NCBI GenBank assembly: GCA_963790335.1
Contig: CAWBOB010000007.1
Span: 65,639-129,638 of the forward strand
Direction: 5' to 3'
DNA length: 64,000 nt
From: an uncultured Actinomycetes bacterium
GTDB lineage: Bacteria > Actinomycetota > UBA4738 > HRBIN12
The notes below the pieces were generated by a model. The model was given only the letters and a program-made list of their open reading frames with translations, had not been told where the DNA came from and did not search any database. The first letter of the stretch is position 1, and the number at the start of each line of letters is the position of its first letter. Shown piece after piece: positions 32,365 through 39,964 of the stretch. Position numbers and translations under genes: made by a program.

Positions 32365-32872
32365 TCAGGCGACGAGCGGCGCCAGCCTGATCAGGCCGCT
32401 CACGTCGATCGGAGCGAGGTAGTCGAGCGGGTCGACGTACGCATCATCGAGCTTCACACCCAGGTGCAGGTTGGCCACCAGGTCGCCGGTATGCCCGAGT
32501 CCGGTGCGCACGACCGGGTCGCCTTGCGCGACGAGGTCGCCGCGGCGCACGAGCAGCGCCGACACCCATGAGTAGGTCGACTCGAGTCCGGCGCCGTGAT
32601 CGATCGTGAGGAAGAGGCGCCCCCCGACGGGGCCGGCGAAGACCACGCGTCCGTCGGCCGGGGCCACGGCCACGCTTCCCGCGACGGCGGCGATGTCGAT
32701 GCCCCGGTGGCCCGAGCCGAACGGAGACGCCGGCGGGTCGAACCCACGGATCACGGGGCCGGTCACCGGCCACGTCCAGGTTCCCGCGGCGACCGCAGGC
32801 GGTGCCGTCGCCCAGGTCAGGGTGACGACGACCAACGTCATCGCGAGAGCTGGTTCGGCAGAGCTGACGCAT
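32365..32872 (-). CDS. M23-family peptidase (murein hydrolase/activator); leaderless start 32872 with a probable frameshift, in-frame ATG at 32841
   Basis: WTWPVTG, GHRGIDI, TIDHG, TYS, HLG, YVDPLDYL; TACCGT -10 lies 7 nt before ATG 32872. Confidence 0.85.
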
Positions 32873-32907
32873 GGTGCCGACGGTAGCCGAGCCCCTCGAG
32901 ACGCACC

Positions 32908-32921
32908 GTGACGCGCGTCAC
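32908..32921. promoter_or_regulatory. Perfect palindrome GTGACGCGCGTCAC (CRP-like GTGA-N6-TCAC), copy 1
   Basis: 22 nt upstream of the M23 -10 (32880-32885); extends to a 16-bp perfect palindrome (32907-32922). Confidence 0.7.
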
Positions 32922-32951
32922 GTTGGCGGCAGGATGTTCGGGCGGTACCGC

Positions 32952-33866
32952 CTACTCGACCTCGGTCAGCTGACCCCGCAGCCCGCCAACCGCCTTCGTG
33001 TGGATCTGGCAGACGCGTGACTCGGTCACACCGAGGATCTCCCCGATCTCGGCGAGCGTGAGCCCCTCGAAGTAGTAGAGCGTGACCACGATCTTCTCCC
33101 GCTCGGAGAGCTCGTTGATCGCGGCGGCAAGCAGGCTCCTCGTCTCCTGCGATTCGACGCCCGACGTGGGATCGAGGCCACGGTCGGCGAGCGTGTCGAT
33201 CAGCGACACCTGCTCACCTCGGTCGGCACCCACCGACACCAGCTCGTCGAGTGCGAGCACCGAGACGAACGAGATCTGTGAGACCACGTCGTGCAGCTCG
33301 CGGCGCGTGATGCCGAGACGCTCGGCCATCTCCTGCTCGCTCGGCTGCCGCTTCAGCATGGCTTCGAGGTCGGTGTGCGCCTTCTCGATCTCCCGAGCCT
33401 TGAACCGGATCGAGCGCGGCACCCAGTCCATGGCCCGCAGCTCATCGATGATCGCGCCCTTGATGCGTGGGATCGCATACGTCTCGAACTTGTTGCCGCG
33501 GCCGGGCTCGAACTTGGTGAGGGCATCGATCAGGCCGAACATGCCGTAGCTCACGAGGTCGGCCTGTTCGACGCTCGCCGGAAGCCCGGTCGCGACCCTG
33601 CTCGCCACGTACTTCACGAGCGGGGCGTAATGCAGGATGAGCTTCTCGCGCGACTCGTCGTCGCCCGTGCTCTTGAAACCGTGCCAGTGGCCCCCGAGCT
33701 CATCGTCGACGTGCGGTGGGACGGTGATGGTCGGGTCGAAGGACGCGGCAGCCTTGCCGCCTGCCTTGGCACCGACCTTCGCCCGGGTCTTCACGGCCGT
33801 CTTCGCGCCGGACTTCGCAGCCGGCTTGGGCGGGGCCTTGGTGGCCGTCTTCTTCGCGGTCGGCAC
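32952..33866 (-). CDS. whiG: FliA/WhiG-family (sigma-28) RNA polymerase sigma factor
   Basis: HYAPLVKYVASRV, DLVSYGMFGLIDA, FETYAIPRIKGAIIDELRAMDWVPRS, LYYFEGLTLAEIG, TESRVCQIH; xerC-whiG-rpsB synteny. Confidence 0.9.
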   Translation of the reverse strand: MPTAKKTATKAPPKPAAKSGAKTAVKTRAKVGAKAGGKAAASFDPTITVPPHVDDELGGHWHGFKSTGDDESREKLILHYAPLVKYVASRVATGLPASVEQADLVSYGMFGLIDALTKFEPGRGNKFETYAIPRIKGAIIDELRAMDWVPRSIRFKAREIEKAHTDLEAMLKRQPSEQEMAERLGITRRELHDVVSQISFVSVLALDELVSVGADRGEQVSLIDTLADRGLDPTSGVESQETRSLLAAAINELSEREKIVVTLYYFEGLTLAEIGEILGVTESRVCQIHTKAVGGLRGQLTEVE

Positions 33867-33869
33867 GAC

Positions 33870-34818
33870 TCAGGCCCTCGGGTGAGACCGCTCGTAGACC
33901 TGGAACAACCGAGCACGAGACACGTGGGTGTAGCGCTGCGTGGTCGCAACGCTGGCGTGTCCCAACAGTTCCTGTACGGCTCGGATGTCGGCTCCCCCTT
34001 CCAACAGGTGCGTGGCGAACGAGTGCCGCAGGGTGTGCGGGGTCACCCGCCGGCCCGGCAGCACTGTACCGCCATATCGTTCCACCATCGTACGGATGTC
34101 CCTCGAGCTGAAGGGTTTCTTGCGACGGTTGTGGAAGAGGTGTGCGGAGCCAACGGGAGCGAGCGTCGCACGCCCTTCACGGAGGAAGGCTCGAACGGCC
34201 TCGACCGCGTAGTCGGACATGGGCACCTCGCGCTCCTTGGCGCCCTTGCCCATCACGCTCACCCGGCCCCGGTCGAGATCGACGCGGTCGACGCGTGAGG
34301 CTCGCGACCTCGCCCACGCGCAGGCCCGAGCCGTACATGAGCTCGAGCGCGGCGACGTCACGCAGGGCGATCGCGCGGTCGACCGGCGTGGGCTCGGCAT
34401 CGGGGTCGCGGTCGACACCTGACGGGGCCTCGGCCAGCGCGGCAGCTTCCTGCTGGCGGAGCACGGTCGGAAGGCGGTTCACGACCTTCGGGCGCCCGAG
34501 CAACAGCGACGGATCCTCGATGACTCGGCCGTCGGCGAGCGCCCATCGGTAGAACGTGTGGATCGTGCCCACCCGGCGCGCGATCGACGCGCGCGCGTAT
34601 CCGAGCGTGTGCTGCTGTGCGAGGAAGCGTCGCAGCAGCGGATAGCGCACGTCGGCGAGGGAGGTGCCGCCCCGGTGCAGGAACGTGGCGAGCTGCGTCA
34701 GATCTCGCCGGTACGCGTCGACCGTGTGCCGCGACAGGTGGCGCTCGAGCGTGAGATGCGCCGTGAACGCGTCGATCAGCGTACGGTCGGCCCGGGGAAG
34801 CTCGTCGGCGGAAGGCAC
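33870..34818 (-). CDS. xerC: Tyrosine recombinase XerC (frameshift near 34295)
   Basis: [55 protein letters not shown]; follows dprA. Confidence 0.9.
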
Positions 34819-34853
34819 GTGGAGAGCTTGCCACGGCGCCGCACCCTCGACGG

Positions 34854-36051
34854 TCAGCCGGCGCCGGAAACCGATGCGGCGCCGGCTGCTGACGTCACCC
34901 GGCGCTCGTACCGCCCTCCCACGCTCCGCACGAGCCCCTTGAGCTCGAGCGAGAGCAGCGCGGTGGTGACCGCGGGCGGCGCCAGGGTGGTCGAGACCGA
35001 GATCGCATCGGGAAGCCCCGACGCTCCCAGGGCCTCGTAGACCCGACGCTCGTCGCCCGACAGGTTCGGGGGCGGCTCGAGCCGCAGCCGCTCCGTGTAA
35101 CCGAGGTCGTCGAGCAGGTCGTCGGCGCCACGGATCATCGTCGCGCCATCACGGATCAGCGCGAGCGGGATCTCTGCGAGCGGGCTCGTGACCTGGCCGG
35201 GCACGGCGAACACGTCACGGCCCAGATCGAGCGCGTGGTCGACCGAGATCATCGATCCGCTGCCGTGGGCCCCCTCGACCACCACGAGCGCACGCCCCAG
35301 GGCGGCGACGAGGCGGTTCCGCGCCGGGAACCGGAACGCCTCGGCCGCGACGCCCGGCGCGTACTCGCTCACGACCGCACCCGCCGCAGCGATGCGCGCG
35401 ACCAGCTCGGAGCTTCCTTTCGGGTACGGCAGATCGTGACCCGACCCGAGCACGGCGATGCTCGTGCCACCCGAGGCCAGCGCGCCACGGTGCGAAGCGG
35501 CGTCGATGCCCCTGGCAGCCCCGCTCACCACGCACACCCCCACGCCACCGAGCCCGGCGCCGACGCTCATCGCCACCTCGTTGCCGGTCGGCGAGCAGTT
35601 GCGCGCGCCCACGACGGAGACCCGCTCGGGCAGCTCGGTCAGCGGCGTTCCCGAGACGTAGAGCCCGACGGGAGGATCGTGCAGCAGCTCGAGGAACACG
35701 GGCAGATACTCGTCGTCGGCCGGCGTCACGAACCGCACCCCCAACGCCGACGCCTCGCGCTCCACACCCGCCGCATCGAGCGTCTCGGGCCCAGACCCGG
35801 TCGGCCTCGCTGCCCGCGGCGCCCGCCCGTATCGCGGCGAGGCTCGCCTCGGCGGTGCCTTCGCTCCACGCGAGCTCGTGGAGCTGGAAGGGCTTCATGC
35901 CCCGCAGGGCGGAGAGCACCAGCAGGGCTTCGCGCGCGCCCTCGCCGCTCGCGTACCCGTCGGGGAACCCCGGCGGCACGTCGAGGGCTCGCCTCGGCAC
36001 GTCGCCCCGCCGTGGTCGGCGTGCGCCGGGTGCCGGCGCTTCAACCGACAC
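34854..36051 (-). CDS. dprA: DNA-processing protein DprA (frameshift near 35790)
   Basis: VVGARNCS, VVSGAARGIDAASH, VSEYAPG, FPARNRLVA, VVEGAHGSGS, VFAVPG; the N-terminus is in the frame starting GTG 36051. Confidence 0.93.
34855..34888 (-). terminator. 12-bp stem hairpin at the dprA 3' end (possible terminator of comM-dprA)
   Basis: CAGCCGGCGCCG (34855-34866) / CGGCGCCGGCTG (34877-34888); no clear U-tract. Confidence 0.45.
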
Positions 36052-37576
36052 GGGTGAGACCCTCCATCACCACGCCGTCGCGGTAGGAGAGCGCCTCGGA
36101 GACGTGTGCGCTGTCGACCACGTCGGCGCCGTCGAGGTCGGCGACCGTGCGAGCGACCTTGATCGCGCGGTCGAAGCCGCGCCCGGTGAGCCCGAACCGG
36201 TCCACCGCCCCGCCCAACAGCCCCTCGGCCGACCGTGTGAGCCGCACCAGCCGCCGCGCGATCGGCCCCGGCAGGTATGCGTTGCAGGCCACACCGTACT
36301 CCGCCCATCTCGCGCGCTGGCGGTCGCGCGCCCGCTGCACACGGTCGCGGATCACGATGGATGGCTCGCCCTGACCGCCTCCCATGAGCTCCTGCTTCGT
36401 GAGACGCGGAACCCGCAGGCGCAGGTCGATGCGGTCGAGGAGCGGCCCCGAGAGCTTCTGCCGGTACTGGTCGACCCGATCGGACCGGCAGCGGCAGTGC
36501 CGCCGCGGGTCGCCCTCGAACCCGCACGGGCACGGGTTCGCGGCGGCGACCAGCGTGAACCGCGCCGGGAAGGCGACCGAGCCGACGGCCCGGGTCACGA
36601 CCACCCCGCCATCCTCGAGCGGCTGGCGGAGCCCTTCGATCGCGTCGCGCCGGAACTCGGTGAGCTCGTCGAGGAACAGCACCCCGTGGTGGGCGAGCGA
36701 GACCTCGCCCGGACGCAGGTAGCCCGTGCCGCCCCCGAGCAGCCCGGTCAGGGAGATCGAATGGTGCGGTGCGCGGAACGGCCGGGCACGCAGCACGCCG
36801 CGCCCCGCGAGCAGCCCGGCGACCGAGTGCAGCTGGGTCGCCTCGAGCGCCTCGTCGCGCGAGAGGCTCGGCAGGATCGTCGTCATGCGCCGAGCGAGCA
36901 TCGTCTTGCCCGCGCCGGGCGAGCCGACCATCAGCACGTTGTGGCCACCAGCTGCGGCGACCTCGAGGGCTCGTCGGGCCTGCGTCTGCCCGCGCACGTC
37001 ACTGAAGTCCACGTCGCTCGGCGCGTCGGCCTCGAGCGATGCTTCGCCGATCTCGGGCGGCTGCCAGGTTCCCTTCAGGAAGCCGACCACCTCGGCGAGC
37101 GTCGAGACCGCGACGACGCGCAGCCGATCGACCTGGGCCGCCTCGAGCGCGTTCACCGCAGGCACGATCACCCCGTCGAGCTTCGCGCGCGCTGCGGCGA
37201 TCGCCACCGAGAGCACGCCGGGCGTCGGCATGAGCTCGCCCTTGAGCGAGAGCTCGCCGGCGAGCGCGAACCTGCCGAGCAGGGTCACGGGAAGCTGCGC
37301 GGTCGCCGCCAGCACGCCGGTGGCGACGGGAAGGTCGAGTCCCGGACCTTCCTTGCGGAGGTTGCCGGGCGCGAGGTTGACGACCACCCGGCGCAGCGGC
37401 CACTCGAGCTTCTGGCTCTCGACCGCCGGCCGGATGCGCTCACACGCGTCGCGCACCGCGGCCCCCGGGAGCCCGGTGAGCGTGAGCGAGGGAAGCCCCC
37501 GACCCACGTGCGCTTCCACGGTCACGAGGTGTCCACCCACCCCGAGCACCGAGACGCCGAGCACCCGTCCGTACAT
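36041..37576 (-). CDS. comM: ComM/YifB Mg-chelatase-like AAA+ helicase
   Basis: NLAPGNLRKEGPGLDL, GHNVLMVGSPGAGKT, PFRAPHH, PGEVSLAHHGVLFLDE, NPCPCG, SGPLLDRID. Confidence 0.95.
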   Translation of the reverse strand: MYGRVLGVSVLGVGGHLVTVEAHVGRGLPSLTLTGLPGAAVRDACERIRPAVESQKLEWPLRRVVVNLAPGNLRKEGPGLDLPVATGVLAATAQLPVTLLGRFALAGELSLKGELMPTPGVLSVAIAAARAKLDGVIVPAVNALEAAQVDRLRVVAVSTLAEVVGFLKGTWQPPEIGEASLEADAPSDVDFSDVRGQTQARRALEVAAAGGHNVLMVGSPGAGKTMLARRMTTILPSLSRDEALEATQLHSVAGLLAGRGVLRARPFRAPHHSISLTGLLGGGTGYLRPGEVSLAHHGVLFLDELTEFRRDAIEGLRQPLEDGGVVVTRAVGSVAFPARFTLVAAANPCPCGFEGDPRRHCRCRSDRVDQYRQKLSGPLLDRIDLRLRVPRLTKQELMGGGQGEPSIVIRDRVQRARDRQRARWAEYGVACNAYLPGPIARRLVRLTRSAEGLLGGAVDRFGLTGRGFDRAIKVARTVADLDGADVVDSAHVSEALSYRDGVVMEGLTRVG

Positions 37577-37613
37577 CGCCGGTGACGCTAGAGCCGCGAG
37601 GCCGGCGCGTTCG

Positions 37614-37627
37614 GTGACGCGCGTCAC
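37614..37627. promoter_or_regulatory. Perfect palindrome GTGACGCGCGTCAC, copy 2, in the comM/decarboxylase divergent promoter
   Basis: Identical to 32908-32921; 23 nt upstream of the comM -10 TAGCGT (37585-37590). Confidence 0.7.
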
Positions 37628-37669
37628 GTCCGGCGCGAGGTCGCCGGCGTCGCTGCTAGCCTCGCCGCC

Positions 37670-39205
37670 GTGTCAGAGCGCTTCGACTGGAGCCCCGAGC
37701 CCGAGCTGATCGACGTGCGCGACGAGGCGCGCAGCCGCCCCGCGCTCGAGGCGCTCGGCGAGCAGACCTGGCGCGAGGCGCTCGACTGGCTCTACGGCGA
37801 GGCCATGCGCCGCCCGATCCTCGTGCGCACCTACCCCGAGGCACGCACGGCGTTCTTCGGCGCGAGCAACGGTCCAGCTGCGGCGCCGGCATCCCCGACG
37901 ACATGGACCGAGGTGCTCGCCGAGTTCCGGGAGCGGGTCGCACCCGCCACCTACAACGCGCAGCATCCGGGCTCGTTCAGCTACTTCACCCCTCCCCCGC
38001 TGCCGAGCTCGATCGCCGGCGACGTGCTGGCGCAATGGCTCCACCAGGGTGTCGACGTTTGGCACGCGGGTCCGATCGGCACCTTCGTCGAGGAAGAGGT
38101 CACCGCCTGGCTCCGCGACCTCGTGGGGTTCGGCCCCGACGGCTGGGGTGTGCTCACGAGCGGCGGGGTCATGGCCAACGTCATGGCGATGACGGTCGCC
38201 AGAGACGTCTGGCTCGCGAAGCTCCGCGGCATCGCCGGCGCCCCGCGCGGCGCCGACCTCGAGGGCGTACGGGTCTACGCGAGCGACCAGACGCACTTCT
38301 CGATCGCCCGCGCTCTCGGGGTGCTCGGCTTCCCTCGGGAGACGCTCGTCGTGATCGAAAGCGACGAGCGGTTCCGGCTCCAGCCAACGCCCGTGGCGGA
38401 GGCGATCGAGCGCGACCGTGCGGCCGGGCTGACGCCCCTCGCGATCGCGGGCGTCGCGGGGTCGACGAACACGGGCTCGGTCGACGACACGGTGGGGCTC
38501 GCCGACGTGGCCGAACGGGAAGGCGTGTGGCTGCACGTCGACGCCGCCTACGGGGGGGCAGCCCGGCTCTCGACCCGCGACGGTCACCGGGTGCCGGGAC
38601 TCGAGCGTGCCGACAGCGTCACGATCGACCCGCACAAGTGGTTCTTCCAGGCCTACGACATCGGGGCGCTGGTGGTGCGCCGGCGCGAGGACCTGCTGAG
38701 CACCTTCCACTCGTCGCCCGAGTACTACGCGTCGAGCCGTCCCGAGGACGAGCCGCTCAACTGGTACCAGTACTCGCTCGAGGGCACGCGCCGCTTCCGC
38801 GCCCTCAAGCTCTGGATGAGCTGGAAGCAGGTCGGCTCCGCGGGCTTCGGCGCCCTGATCGAGCAGAACGACGACCTGGCCGCCTACCTCGCCGGCCGCT
38901 GTCGCGACGAGCCCGACCTCGAGGCGGTGCCCGCCGAGCCCGAGCTGAGCATCGTCTGCTTCCGGCACCTGCCGTCGGGGTGCGAGCAGTGGCCAGCCGA
39001 GGTGCTCGACGACTACCAGGCTCGCCTGCAGCGGGCCCTCGAGATCAGCGGGGAAGCCTGGGTGAGCGTGACCACGCTGCGCGGCCGTACGTTCCTGCGA
39101 GCAGGCGTCGTGAACTACCTGTCGACCGAAGACGACGTCGACCTCATGATCGACACCCTTCGGAAGCTGTCAGGCGACGTGATCCGAGCGCTCGACCTCG
39201 GCTGA
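37670..39205 (+). CDS. PLP-dependent group II decarboxylase (aromatic amino acid / diaminobutyrate decarboxylase family)
   Basis: QHPGSFSYF, SGGVMAN, SDQTHFS, GSTNTGSVD, WLHVDAAYGG, DPHKW (PLP Lys), RRFRALKLW; leaderless TGC-TAGCCT promoter. Confidence 0.92.
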   Translation: MSERFDWSPEPELIDVRDEARSRPALEALGEQTWREALDWLYGEAMRRPILVRTYPEARTAFFGASNGPAAAPASPTTWTEVLAEFRERVAPATYNAQHPGSFSYFTPPPLPSSIAGDVLAQWLHQGVDVWHAGPIGTFVEEEVTAWLRDLVGFGPDGWGVLTSGGVMANVMAMTVARDVWLAKLRGIAGAPRGADLEGVRVYASDQTHFSIARALGVLGFPRETLVVIESDERFRLQPTPVAEAIERDRAAGLTPLAIAGVAGSTNTGSVDDTVGLADVAEREGVWLHVDAAYGGAARLSTRDGHRVPGLERADSVTIDPHKWFFQAYDIGALVVRRREDLLSTFHSSPEYYASSRPEDEPLNWYQYSLEGTRRFRALKLWMSWKQVGSAGFGALIEQNDDLAAYLAGRCRDEPDLEAVPAEPELSIVCFRHLPSGCEQWPAEVLDDYQARLQRALEISGEAWVSVTTLRGRTFLRAGVVNYLSTEDDVDLMIDTLRKLSGDVIRALDLG

Positions 39206-39412: not shown

Positions 39413-39526
39413 GATGCGGGATGGTAGGTCGCTCCATGACACGCGCGCCACGGTCGGATGAGCACGATCGATGCGACCGAGGTTCGATCCGGACATGGCC
39501 ATTCGGTGTAGGCCGGTGCCACCTCG

Positions 39527-39898
39527 TCAGAACGCGTCTTCGAAGAGCTCCACCTCGATGGATCCCTCCGGCGACGATCCGGTGCGAACGGCGACGCTCG
39601 CCACATCGAAGCGCACGCAGAGCGGGCCGATGCCGTGCGTGAGCAGGAAGACCTCGGCGAGGGACCGCAGCTTCCGCCGCTTGCGGGCGTCGACCGCATC
39701 GAACCCAACCCCGCGGCTCGAGCCACGACGGGTCTTGACCTCGCAGAACACCAGCACGTCGCGCCGGCGCAGCACCAGATCGATCTCGCCGAGGCTGCAC
39801 CGCCAGTTGCTCGCCACGAGCGAGAACCCGCGGCGCCGGTAGAGGTCGAGCGCCGCCCGCTCGCCCCTGGCCCCGAGATCGGAACGCGCGTCGGACAC
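39527..39898 (-). CDS. yraN: YraN/UPF0102 family nuclease
   Basis: LGARGE, NWRCSLGEIDLV, VFCEVKTR, RFDVASV; leaderless TACGGT -10 supports GTG 39898. Confidence 0.92.
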   Translation of the reverse strand: MSDARSDLGARGERAALDLYRRRGFSLVASNWRCSLGEIDLVLRRRDVLVFCEVKTRRGSSRGVGFDAVDARKRRKLRSLAEVFLLTHGIGPLCVRFDVASVAVRTGSSPEGSIEVELFEDAF

Positions 39899-39964
39899 GA
39901 CGAGGACCGTAGAGGCGAGGTGTGACACGAAGCGCCGGAAGCGGCGCTCCCGATCGCGAGACCG

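Follow-up and report, generated by a model that had tools for sequence, protein, structure and literature searches.

The CRP-S regulon is a small, dedicated set of competence genes whose sites carry a GTGA...TCAC core, as is generally known and is summarised in PMC8467076. How competence is controlled in the Actinomycetota is an open question. Micrococcus luteus is the only actinobacterial transformation system that has been studied; its transformation needs the tad genes together with comEA-comEC (PMC4322843), and neither a master regulator nor a promoter box is known for it (PMC8467076, PMC12849477). Genotoxic stress induces competence genes in Streptococcus pneumoniae and Legionella pneumophila, according to Charpentier, Polard and Claverys (2012) as cited in PMC7617703. 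In mycobacteria, PafBC activates the DNA-damage regulon via the RecA-NDp promoter motif, which is widespread in Actinobacteria (PMC6789036, PMC8223512). Here, we analyzed a window of 64,000 nt from an uncultured actinobacterium (C7:65639-129638 of a 3.07 Mb assembly in 11 contigs), in which a 14-nt palindromic box, GTGACGCGCGTCAC, lies upstream of comM-dprA and of a gene for a secreted M23 metallopeptidase. Our results suggest that this box defines a candidate competence regulon and that it is most likely read by a CRP/FNR-family protein of ~200 aa, whose own gene carries a promoter of the PafBC type.

An exact search found the 14-mer at 32908-32921 and 37614-37627, both intergenic and facing minus-strand genes, as a preliminary description of this DNA had reported. 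These are the only two exact copies in the whole assembly, where 0.23 and 0.08 copies per genome are expected from first- and second-order Markov models, respectively (0.002-0.005 per window), so that two copies are indeed unlikely by chance. Both sites match the CRP-type dyad core GTGA-N6-TCAC exactly. The spacing proposed earlier, 22 nt for the M23 gene and 23 nt for comM to a TAnnnT -10 element followed by a leaderless ATG, was also recovered (Table 1). A weaker 11/14 match at 39438-39451, which the same description had mentioned, does not exceed chance (16 matches with three mismatches or fewer against 19.8 expected) and lies between two convergent gene ends; it was rejected as a further box on both its match and its placement.

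We then considered the whole genome, with gene positions taken from our own crude codon-model calls and transcription starts inferred from the -10 positions. The dyad GTGAC-N4-GTCAC has 17 copies in the focal genome against ~4.9 expected, 12 of which are non-coding in a genome where non-coding DNA makes up ~17% (binomial P = 1.5e-6); GTCAC-N4-GTGAC, the control with swapped halves, has 10 copies, none of them non-coding. Downstream of box sites with at most one mismatch, TAnnnT occurs at an offset of 22 nt at five sites, 23 nt at two and 24 nt at one, with ~0.3 at each other offset. The eight promoters defined in this way are all intergenic and most of them have an ATG 5-9 nt past the -10 element; their mRNAs would therefore be leaderless. 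The logo of 54 distinct sites from the genus reads cGTGACGnnCGTCAC-G-G-N20-TAGCGT-CG, with TAGCGT as the consensus -10 and additional specificity in the inner part of the box (GTGACG..CGTCAC). Two bases past the dyad, a G occurs in 54/54 of these sites without having been required by the search; its place corresponds to that of the -33 G in a -35 hexamer (position 37612 at comM), and the rest of the -35 is not conserved. Nearly all sites have the 22-nt spacing, and the box is then centered at -41.5 if the -10 spans -12 to -7. Fixed phasing, overlap with the -35 and one retained sigma contact make up the anatomy of class II activation, and the box is best regarded as a predicted class II activator site overlapping the -35. 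REP-like elements would have many dispersed and often clustered copies without a fixed relation to promoters; here there are two exact copies, and the core copies are phased to a -10 at offsets 22-24 only, which settles one doubt raised in the preliminary description.

Several other motif classes were compared with the box and rejected: the BldD box (TNAC-N5-GTNA) has the wrong spacing, LexA, GlnR, MtrA and WhiG-type promoters do not fit, and the Rex operator (GTGAA-N4-TTCAC) corresponds to separate sites in the genome. Intergenic GTGAA-N4-TTCAC sites at C3:82854, C3:96944 and C7:242667 resemble the actinobacterial Rex operator and form a separate motif class, which a scan with the looser pattern GTGA-N6-TCAC would not tell apart from the box. 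An ECF-type (extracytoplasmic function sigma factor) -35, GGAAC, just past the box is not conserved and was likewise rejected. Further, the same box with identical flanks was found, in reverse complement, near the end of contig C1 (C1:422505) and within C11 (C11:44149), each beside identical cyclic nucleotide monophosphate (cNMP)-domain genes; this pair is probably a repeat or a contig overlap.

The few matches in the genome include comEA-comEC, comM-dprA and the CpaB pilus protein (Table 1), in line with the earlier proposal that the motif would be found at DNA-uptake genes. Thus, the genes for the uptake channel and receptor (ComEC and ComEA) and those for the processing of single-stranded DNA (DprA and ComM) share one box and one promoter architecture, both in the focal genome and in the genus. 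The genome scan suggested in the preliminary description bore out comEA-comEC, not recA or the ssb-like gene, and gave only an imperfect box at the Tad locus (GTGACGCTCCTCAC at C7:495498, followed after 21 nt by a poor -10, TAGCGA). In the genus, GTGAC-N4-GTCAC-N21-24-TAnnnT has matches in 17 of 18 genomes, with 2-8 in each, and the reversed control pattern has none. The 40 sites fetched from seven genomes precede comM (6), comEA (6), CpaB (6), M23 (5), M15 peptidase (4), DUF222-HNH nuclease genes of group A (6) and group B (3), and a TadZ/CpaE-like gene (1), with three sites unassigned. In the focal genome and the other members of its genus, 14 comEA genes were found, and each of them is boxed, most at the 22-nt spacing; the orphan CpaB equivalog is boxed in all six genomes examined and the TadZ-like gene in one relative. 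Hence, conservation upstream of comM, which had been named as a test of the proposal, holds within the genus, and the same applies to M23 and comEA. These data support the proposed competence regulon with a CRP-family reader at the class II position as the best-supported mechanism for these promoters.

Some members of the set have features of their own. The M15 peptidase gene has a conserved C-rich leader, tCCTCCCACCTCCCCC, between its -10 and a GGAGG ribosome site (C1:54546-54578; L148, L151, L157 and L163 in relatives), and pairing of this leader with the ribosome site might control translation; leaders of a similar C-rich kind also stand before the CRP-like gene described below and, in sister families, before comEA and M23. 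In the genus, the regulon regularly includes the two DUF222-HNH groups, whose family is that of the 13E12 repeat proteins of mycobacteria (L132, L143, L147, L154 and L160; L127, L138 and L164); in the focal genome, a remnant at C1:379573 seems to be all that is left of them. The genes at C8:624869-625311 and C8:626001-626407 are neighbors that encode membrane-anchored paralogues with coiled-coil repeats of the (R/A)(I/F)D(G/D) type; each has a perfect box, and they were not seen among the sites fetched from relatives. The Tad/Flp locus at C7:485,000-497,000 is complete, with flp, tadE/G-like genes, cpaB, tadZ, tadA, tadB and tadC, and is preceded by three response-regulator genes.

A candidate reader of the box was found in a CRP/FNR-family gene on contig C8, which indels disrupt in the focal assembly and which lies behind one of only three strict focal-genome RecA-NDp matches. 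Its orthologues, the distant ones among them found from an alignment because a scan with a single protein gave close relatives only, have ~200-217 aa and the domains cNMP_binding (PF00027, 29.7 bits against a cut-off of 27.5) and HTH_Crp_2 (PF13545, 41.6 bits against a cut-off of 27). Among proteins of solved structure, GlxR and M. tuberculosis CRP match best (full-length profile match, E ~1e-23), and identity to the CRP-family proteins compared is only ~30%. In CRP, the residues of the R-E-x-x-x-R pattern in the recognition helix read the GTGA half-site. R168, E169 and R173 are invariant in eight orthologues, and the helix reads SRE(S/T)xxR in ~70 orthologues, with R-E-x-x-x-R in all of them. 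In the focal genome, the helix reads RQSVNQ and RRASVT in the remaining CRP-like genes, leaving the candidate as the only CRP-family gene with R-E-x-x-x-R at this place; the canonical CRP gene, with RQSVNQ, was rejected as the reader. The cyclic AMP (cAMP) pocket is altered as well. Where CRP has R[ST]A, all eight orthologues read AQA, SAA, ARA or SLV, and so have no canonical cAMP-phosphate-binding Arg, and the FGE segment is absent or changed. The protein scores 32.7 bits against the NCBIfam CRP model (cut-off 266) and stays far below the cut-offs of NtcA and PtrA and below that of every other equivalog. It ends in a conserved tail, PS(C/W)xx(I/M)(R/K)LHxPQ. Taken together, these features and the distribution described below make this protein the most likely reader of the box.

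The promoter of the regulator gene points to DNA damage. TGTCGGnn-N8-TAnnnT lies upstream of the gene in 12/12 orthologues of the genus and in ~57/58 actinobacterial orthologues of a public genome collection, and upstream of none of the Chloroflexota homologues. It has the marks of a RecA-NDp promoter: the element is placed 8 nt before TAnnnT, the same element stands at repair genes, and a pafBC-like pair, two adjacent WYL-domain genes, is present in the focal genome. The exact RecA-NDp consensus reportedly goes back to Gamulin et al. 2004. In the focal genome, TGTC-N4-N8-TAnnnT has 40 copies, 35 of them outside genes, and the motif precedes recA, uvrB, uvrC, a UvrD-like helicase gene, lhr, an ssb-like gene, dnaN, mpa and yraN; several of the genes driven in this way are leaderless. 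The focal genome thus appears to have a large PafBC-type regulon that is distinct from the palindrome regulon. In other genera, comM often carries TGTCGGTG-N8-10-TAnnGT in place of the palindrome. As for yraN (UPF0102), an ancestral neighbor of comM, its promoter (TGTCACAC-N8-TACGGT, then a leaderless GTG 7 nt on) is still of the DNA-damage type; an inserted gene for a pyridoxal phosphate (PLP)-dependent decarboxylase now separates it from comM, which uses the palindrome.

This alternation of promoter types follows the regulator across the order, of which we sampled eight families (f1-f8) and 18 further genomes. In f1, f2, f3, f6 and f7, the regulator is present behind a RecA-NDp promoter, and comEA and M23 carry (T)GTGA-N6-TCAC(A) exactly 22 nt from the -10; the exceptions are G030, in which no box was recognized at comEA, and G020 and G024, for which M23 was not retrieved. 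In f8 and in G028 of f5, no copy of the regulator was found, and both comEA and M23 have TGTCAnnn-N8 and then the -10. G022 of f5 has a regulator copy with an internal stop and no RecA-NDp promoter, and its comEA and M23 promoters are of the direct type. The single, fragmentary genome of f4, in which the regulator was not found, is mixed, with a box at M23 and RecA-NDp at comEA. In total, the switch of promoter type tracks the presence of the candidate regulator in 7/8 families. At least 13 of the 18 further genomes have the regulator, and M23 is boxed wherever the region is covered; one of the 18, G025 (f8), has neither regulator nor box and has RecA-NDp at M23, and two more of them, G037 and G041, have the box and no detectable regulator. 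The distance of exactly 22 nt between the M23 box and the -10 is kept across genera and families. The full form, TGTGA...TCACA, is found in f2 and f6, and in f3 the promoter-proximal half-site is GCAC at both comEA and M23, which hints at a co-drift of site and protein. Since the same genes sit directly in the PafBC regulon in sister families, the coupling to damage looks ancestral and the second tier a rewiring.

These results are most consistent with a cascade from DNA damage through PafBC to the CRP-like activator and, via the class II box, to a competence-like regulon, a reading that we consider rather more probable than its opposite. In this cascade, DNA damage or single-stranded DNA would activate PafBC, which would induce the CRP-like protein from its RecA-NDp promoter; a dimer of this protein would then bind the box at ~-41.5 and recruit RNA polymerase to promoters with only a -10. 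The output would comprise ComEA, ComEC, DprA, ComM, CpaB, HNH nucleases and two secreted peptidoglycan peptidases, which might open the wall. From sequence patterns we infer the pairing of protein and site, activation instead of repression, and transformation as the outcome, and the damage signal is proposed by analogy with mycobacteria. More broadly, an order-level clade of soil Actinomycetota may couple transformation to damage, either through PafBC directly or through a cAMP-independent CRP-like reader of this 'com-box'; this wider view is offered tentatively, as its chances seem somewhat short of even.

Several observations weigh against the cascade. The proposed link between regulator and box is drawn from helix chemistry and co-occurrence, and the regulator gene has no box upstream of it, so that there is no clue to autoregulation. 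Four genomes (G005, G021, G037 and G041) have the M23 box and no detectable regulator; the completeness of G005, which belongs to the genus, is 77% and that of G021 is 83%, and about four misses among ~35 box-bearing metagenome-assembled genomes (MAGs) would fit such incompleteness, yet they remain exceptions. Conversely, G022 keeps a regulator-like gene, with its internal stop, alongside direct-type promoters. As a 'competence' set, the boxed genes are incomplete, because the main Tad pilus locus, recA and the ssb-like gene lack a good box in the focal genome. Finally, the regulator gene, comEA, dprA and M23 are all frame-broken in the focal assembly, where real decay is possible.

Among the alternatives, the one that survives best keeps the mechanism and changes its outcome: the regulon could serve a damage or envelope response, such as division arrest or wall remodeling, nuclease action and repair, and not transformation. 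It would suit the near-universal presence of comEA, comEC, dprA and comM across Actinomycetota, a phylum in which transformation is not known for most members, as well as the direct membership of these genes and M23 in the RecA-NDp set with recA and uvr in sister families, the DUF222-HNH nucleases in the regulon and the lack of a clear box at the main Tad locus. However, the boxed set consists of the canonical machinery for uptake and processing together with a protein of pilus assembly, one relative has a box at a TadZ-like gene, and Flp/Tad pili and comEA/EC are what M. luteus requires for transformation (PMC4322843). We regard this outcome as a serious but doubtful possibility.

It is unlikely, though worth some weight, that the box has another reader, either a further CRP/FNR paralogue or an unrelated dimeric factor, with the CRP-like protein controlling something else. 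The four box-bearing genomes without a copy of the candidate would then be explained, and a CRP paralogue with 'GGSRENVTR', also of the R-E-x-x-x-R type, is widespread in the order. However, that paralogue also occurs in families without the box (G025), and its counterpart in the focal genome has a changed helix where the box is unchanged; moreover, the promoter switch follows the candidate in 7/8 families and the missing copies fit MAG incompleteness.

Classical cAMP-CRP control as in the CRP-S system of Haemophilus and Vibrio, with competence tied to nutritional state, seems improbable. The GTGA-N6-TCAC core near -41.5, the TGTGA-N6-TCACA form in sister families and the many cNMP-binding proteins in the genome would agree with it, but ~8 sites per genome with a single architecture are unlike a global regulon. 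In addition, the helix RQSVNQ of the canonical focal CRP-like protein lacks the Glu and the second Arg that read GTGA, and the best candidate lacks the phosphate-binding Arg in 8/8 orthologues, scores 32.7 bits against the 266 of the model and stands behind a promoter of the DNA-damage type. Judged from these gene and promoter features, nothing appears to support cAMP or nutritional control.

Similarly improbable is that the box is the operator of a repressor that blocks the -35, the genes being derepressed. The box does overlap the -35 region, and in Actinobacteria a -10 is sufficient for many promoters. In contrast, the 22-nt spacing is fixed in nearly all of ~90 sites across genera, a fixity for which a repressor has no need, the invariant G at -33 suggests joint recognition with sigma region 4, and families without the regulator have an activator-type (PafBC) promoter on the same genes. 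Binding of the palindrome by PafBC itself is very improbable: the proximal half, cGTCACgG, does resemble the RecA-NDp core TGTCACTG, and the same genes do alternate between the two promoter types, but the PafBC motif is non-palindromic (PMC6789036) and lies 8 nt from the -10, here as in the mycobacterial consensus, whereas the box forms a perfect dyad at a distance of 22 nt, and genomes that use RecA-NDp and have no CRP-like gene lack the box at comEA and M23. Finally, a chance repeat, a REP-like element or a whiG terminator, which a GC-rich palindrome in a 70% GC genome with one copy following the whiG stop could bring to mind, is refuted by two copies against 0.08-0.23 expected, by their lack of dispersal and fixed -10 phasing, by conservation across dozens of genomes whose flanks diverge, and by the absence of a loop or T-run.

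Table 1. Positions of the boxes, promoters and genes discussed; numbers without a contig label refer to the window.
Feature	Position	Strand	Remarks
Palindromic box GTGACGCGCGTCAC, comM promoter	37614..37627	-	center ~-42.5 with a standard -10, or -44.5 from the ATG; same place in genus relatives
-10 hexamer TAGCGT of comM	37585..37590	-	23 nt downstream of box; 8 nt before ATG 37576
comM (YifB/ComM Mg-chelatase-like AAA+ ATPase), leaderless	36041..37576	-	boxed promoter (comM-dprA); Pfam Mg_chelatase, ChlI, Mg_chelatase_C; NCBIfam TIGR00368, 525.7 bits
dprA	34854..~36000	-	Pfam DNA_processg_A, DprA_WH; TIGR00732; frame break near 35785
Palindromic box GTGACGCGCGTCAC, M23 peptidase promoter	32908..32921	-	center ~-41.5 to -42.5; 30 nt past whiG stop codon
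-10 hexamer TACCGT of M23	32880..32885	-	22 nt downstream of box; 7 nt before ATG 32872
Secreted M23 metallopeptidase gene	32365..32872	-	boxed promoter; Pfam Peptidase_M23; main open reading frame 32365-32841; relatives start at leaderless ATG
xerC-like recombinase gene	33870-34818	-	Pfam Phage_integrase; frame break near 34293
WhiG sigma factor gene	32952-33866	-	Pfam Sigma70 r2/r3/r4; NCBIfam WhiG equivalog, 350.9 bits (cut-off 343)
PLP-dependent decarboxylase gene	37670-39205	divergent from comM	best NCBIfam match diaminobutyrate decarboxylase, well below cut-off
yraN promoter	39906-39927 (motif); 39896-39927 (stretch)	-	RecA-NDp type
comEA-comEC	C1:97801; comEC 94706-97114		boxed promoter
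Secreted M15_4 peptidase gene	C1:54606		boxed promoter, with leader (not leaderless)
Orphan CpaB equivalog, then uppP	C6:103496		boxed promoter
Two paralogous membrane coiled-coil protein genes	C8:624869 and C8:626001		boxed promoters
Remnant locus	C1:379607		boxed promoter
CRP/FNR-family regulator gene	C8 ~260,915-261,560		candidate reader; RecA-NDp promoter
RecA-NDp site, recA	C2:457634
RecA-NDp site, uvrB	C2:223983
RecA-NDp site, uvrC	C2:238309
RecA-NDp site, lhr	C1:17405
RecA-NDp site, ssb-like gene	C2:325665
RecA-NDp site, dnaN	C8:488645
RecA-NDp site, mpa	C2:264581

In the window, dprA starts ~40 nt after comM and is probably co-transcribed with it. Between dprA and M23, the xerC-like and whiG genes follow on the same strand after short gaps, and transcription from the comM promoter may thus read through into them. 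A role of the M23 box as the whiG terminator was rejected, as a perfect dyad leaves no loop and no T-run follows. Control of the divergent decarboxylase gene by the comM box was also rejected, since some relatives have the same divergent gene and a comM promoter of the RecA-NDp type without the box. The decarboxylase gene, which is present in some relatives only, has an extended -10, TGCTAGCCT (37654-37672), 7 nt before its GTG and is thus leaderless as well.

The gene models of the focal genome need care, because frame breaks are frequent. Comparison of the window with the proteins of three relatives (including L004 and L002) revealed frame switches in dprA (~35785) and xerC (~34293), and also in two housekeeping genes (~43220 and ~43740). 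Further breaks lie at C1:~97,560 (comEA), at C8:~261,150 and ~261,530 (the CRP-like gene) and at C6:~102,750 (CpaB read into uppP); against intact orthologues, there is about one break per 3-4 kb in the stretch examined, which points to indel errors of a long-read assembly. The leaderless M23 start at 32872, as first described, is out of frame with the M23 domain in this assembly, where the domain frame opens at ATG 32841 and stays open to 32874. In every relative examined, however, the M23 open reading frame begins at the leaderless start codon, so the start as first described is probably correct. An indel error is the most likely cause of the M23 break, because relatives use the leaderless ATG and housekeeping genes are broken too; the signal-peptide region at the 5' ends of the relatives' genes is too divergent for the indel to be placed by alignment.

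This circuit could be the first testable one for the control of competence in the phylum: it provides a searchable promoter motif, a defined regulon and a named candidate regulator with a predicted PafBC input. If the proposed cascade is true, it would supply the first competence master regulator and promoter box of the phylum, with a regulon that is handed between activators. The finding also adds a second-tier transcription factor and genes for DNA uptake to the predicted PafBC regulon, and it presents a clean example of promoters rewired between sister families. If damage-induced transformation is true of abundant soil actinobacteria, it would bear on the movement of genes through soil communities.

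Compared with known systems, the CRP-S/Sxy (TfoX) regulon of Haemophilus influenzae, Vibrio cholerae and Escherichia coli is the closest analogue in logic; there, too, a CRP-family palindrome lies upstream of comM, dprA, comEA-type and pilus genes. In contrast to CRP-S, the present case lies in another phylum, its candidate reader is a separate small paralogue without the cAMP-binding Arg and not the global CRP, its input appears to be the synthesis of the regulator from a PafBC-type promoter and not cAMP, and its promoters are leaderless with only a -10 and a fixed 22-nt spacing. CRP of M. tuberculosis (Rv3676; PDB 3D0S/3I54) and GlxR of C. glutamicum (PDB 4CYD/3R6S) belong to the same fold family and share the 'SRE(T/S)V' start of the helix, whereas the candidate lacks the FGE...R[TS]SA cAMP pocket, has a conserved C-terminal tail and would control a tiny and not a global regulon. 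As in the mycobacterial PafBC system, TGTCGGTG-N8-TAnnnT precedes recA, uvrB, uvrC, lhr and an ssb-like gene, and adjacent WYL genes are present; here, a CRP-family second tier is added, and sister families include comEA, comM and M23 directly. Our literature searches on PafBC together with competence or com genes found no report of such a second tier or of a link to com genes. S. pneumoniae and L. pneumophila have no LexA SOS system and use ComX or other circuits, whereas here a WYL-domain activator would form the input and a CRP-like protein the output. The circuit is therefore a variant of known systems rather than a new category.

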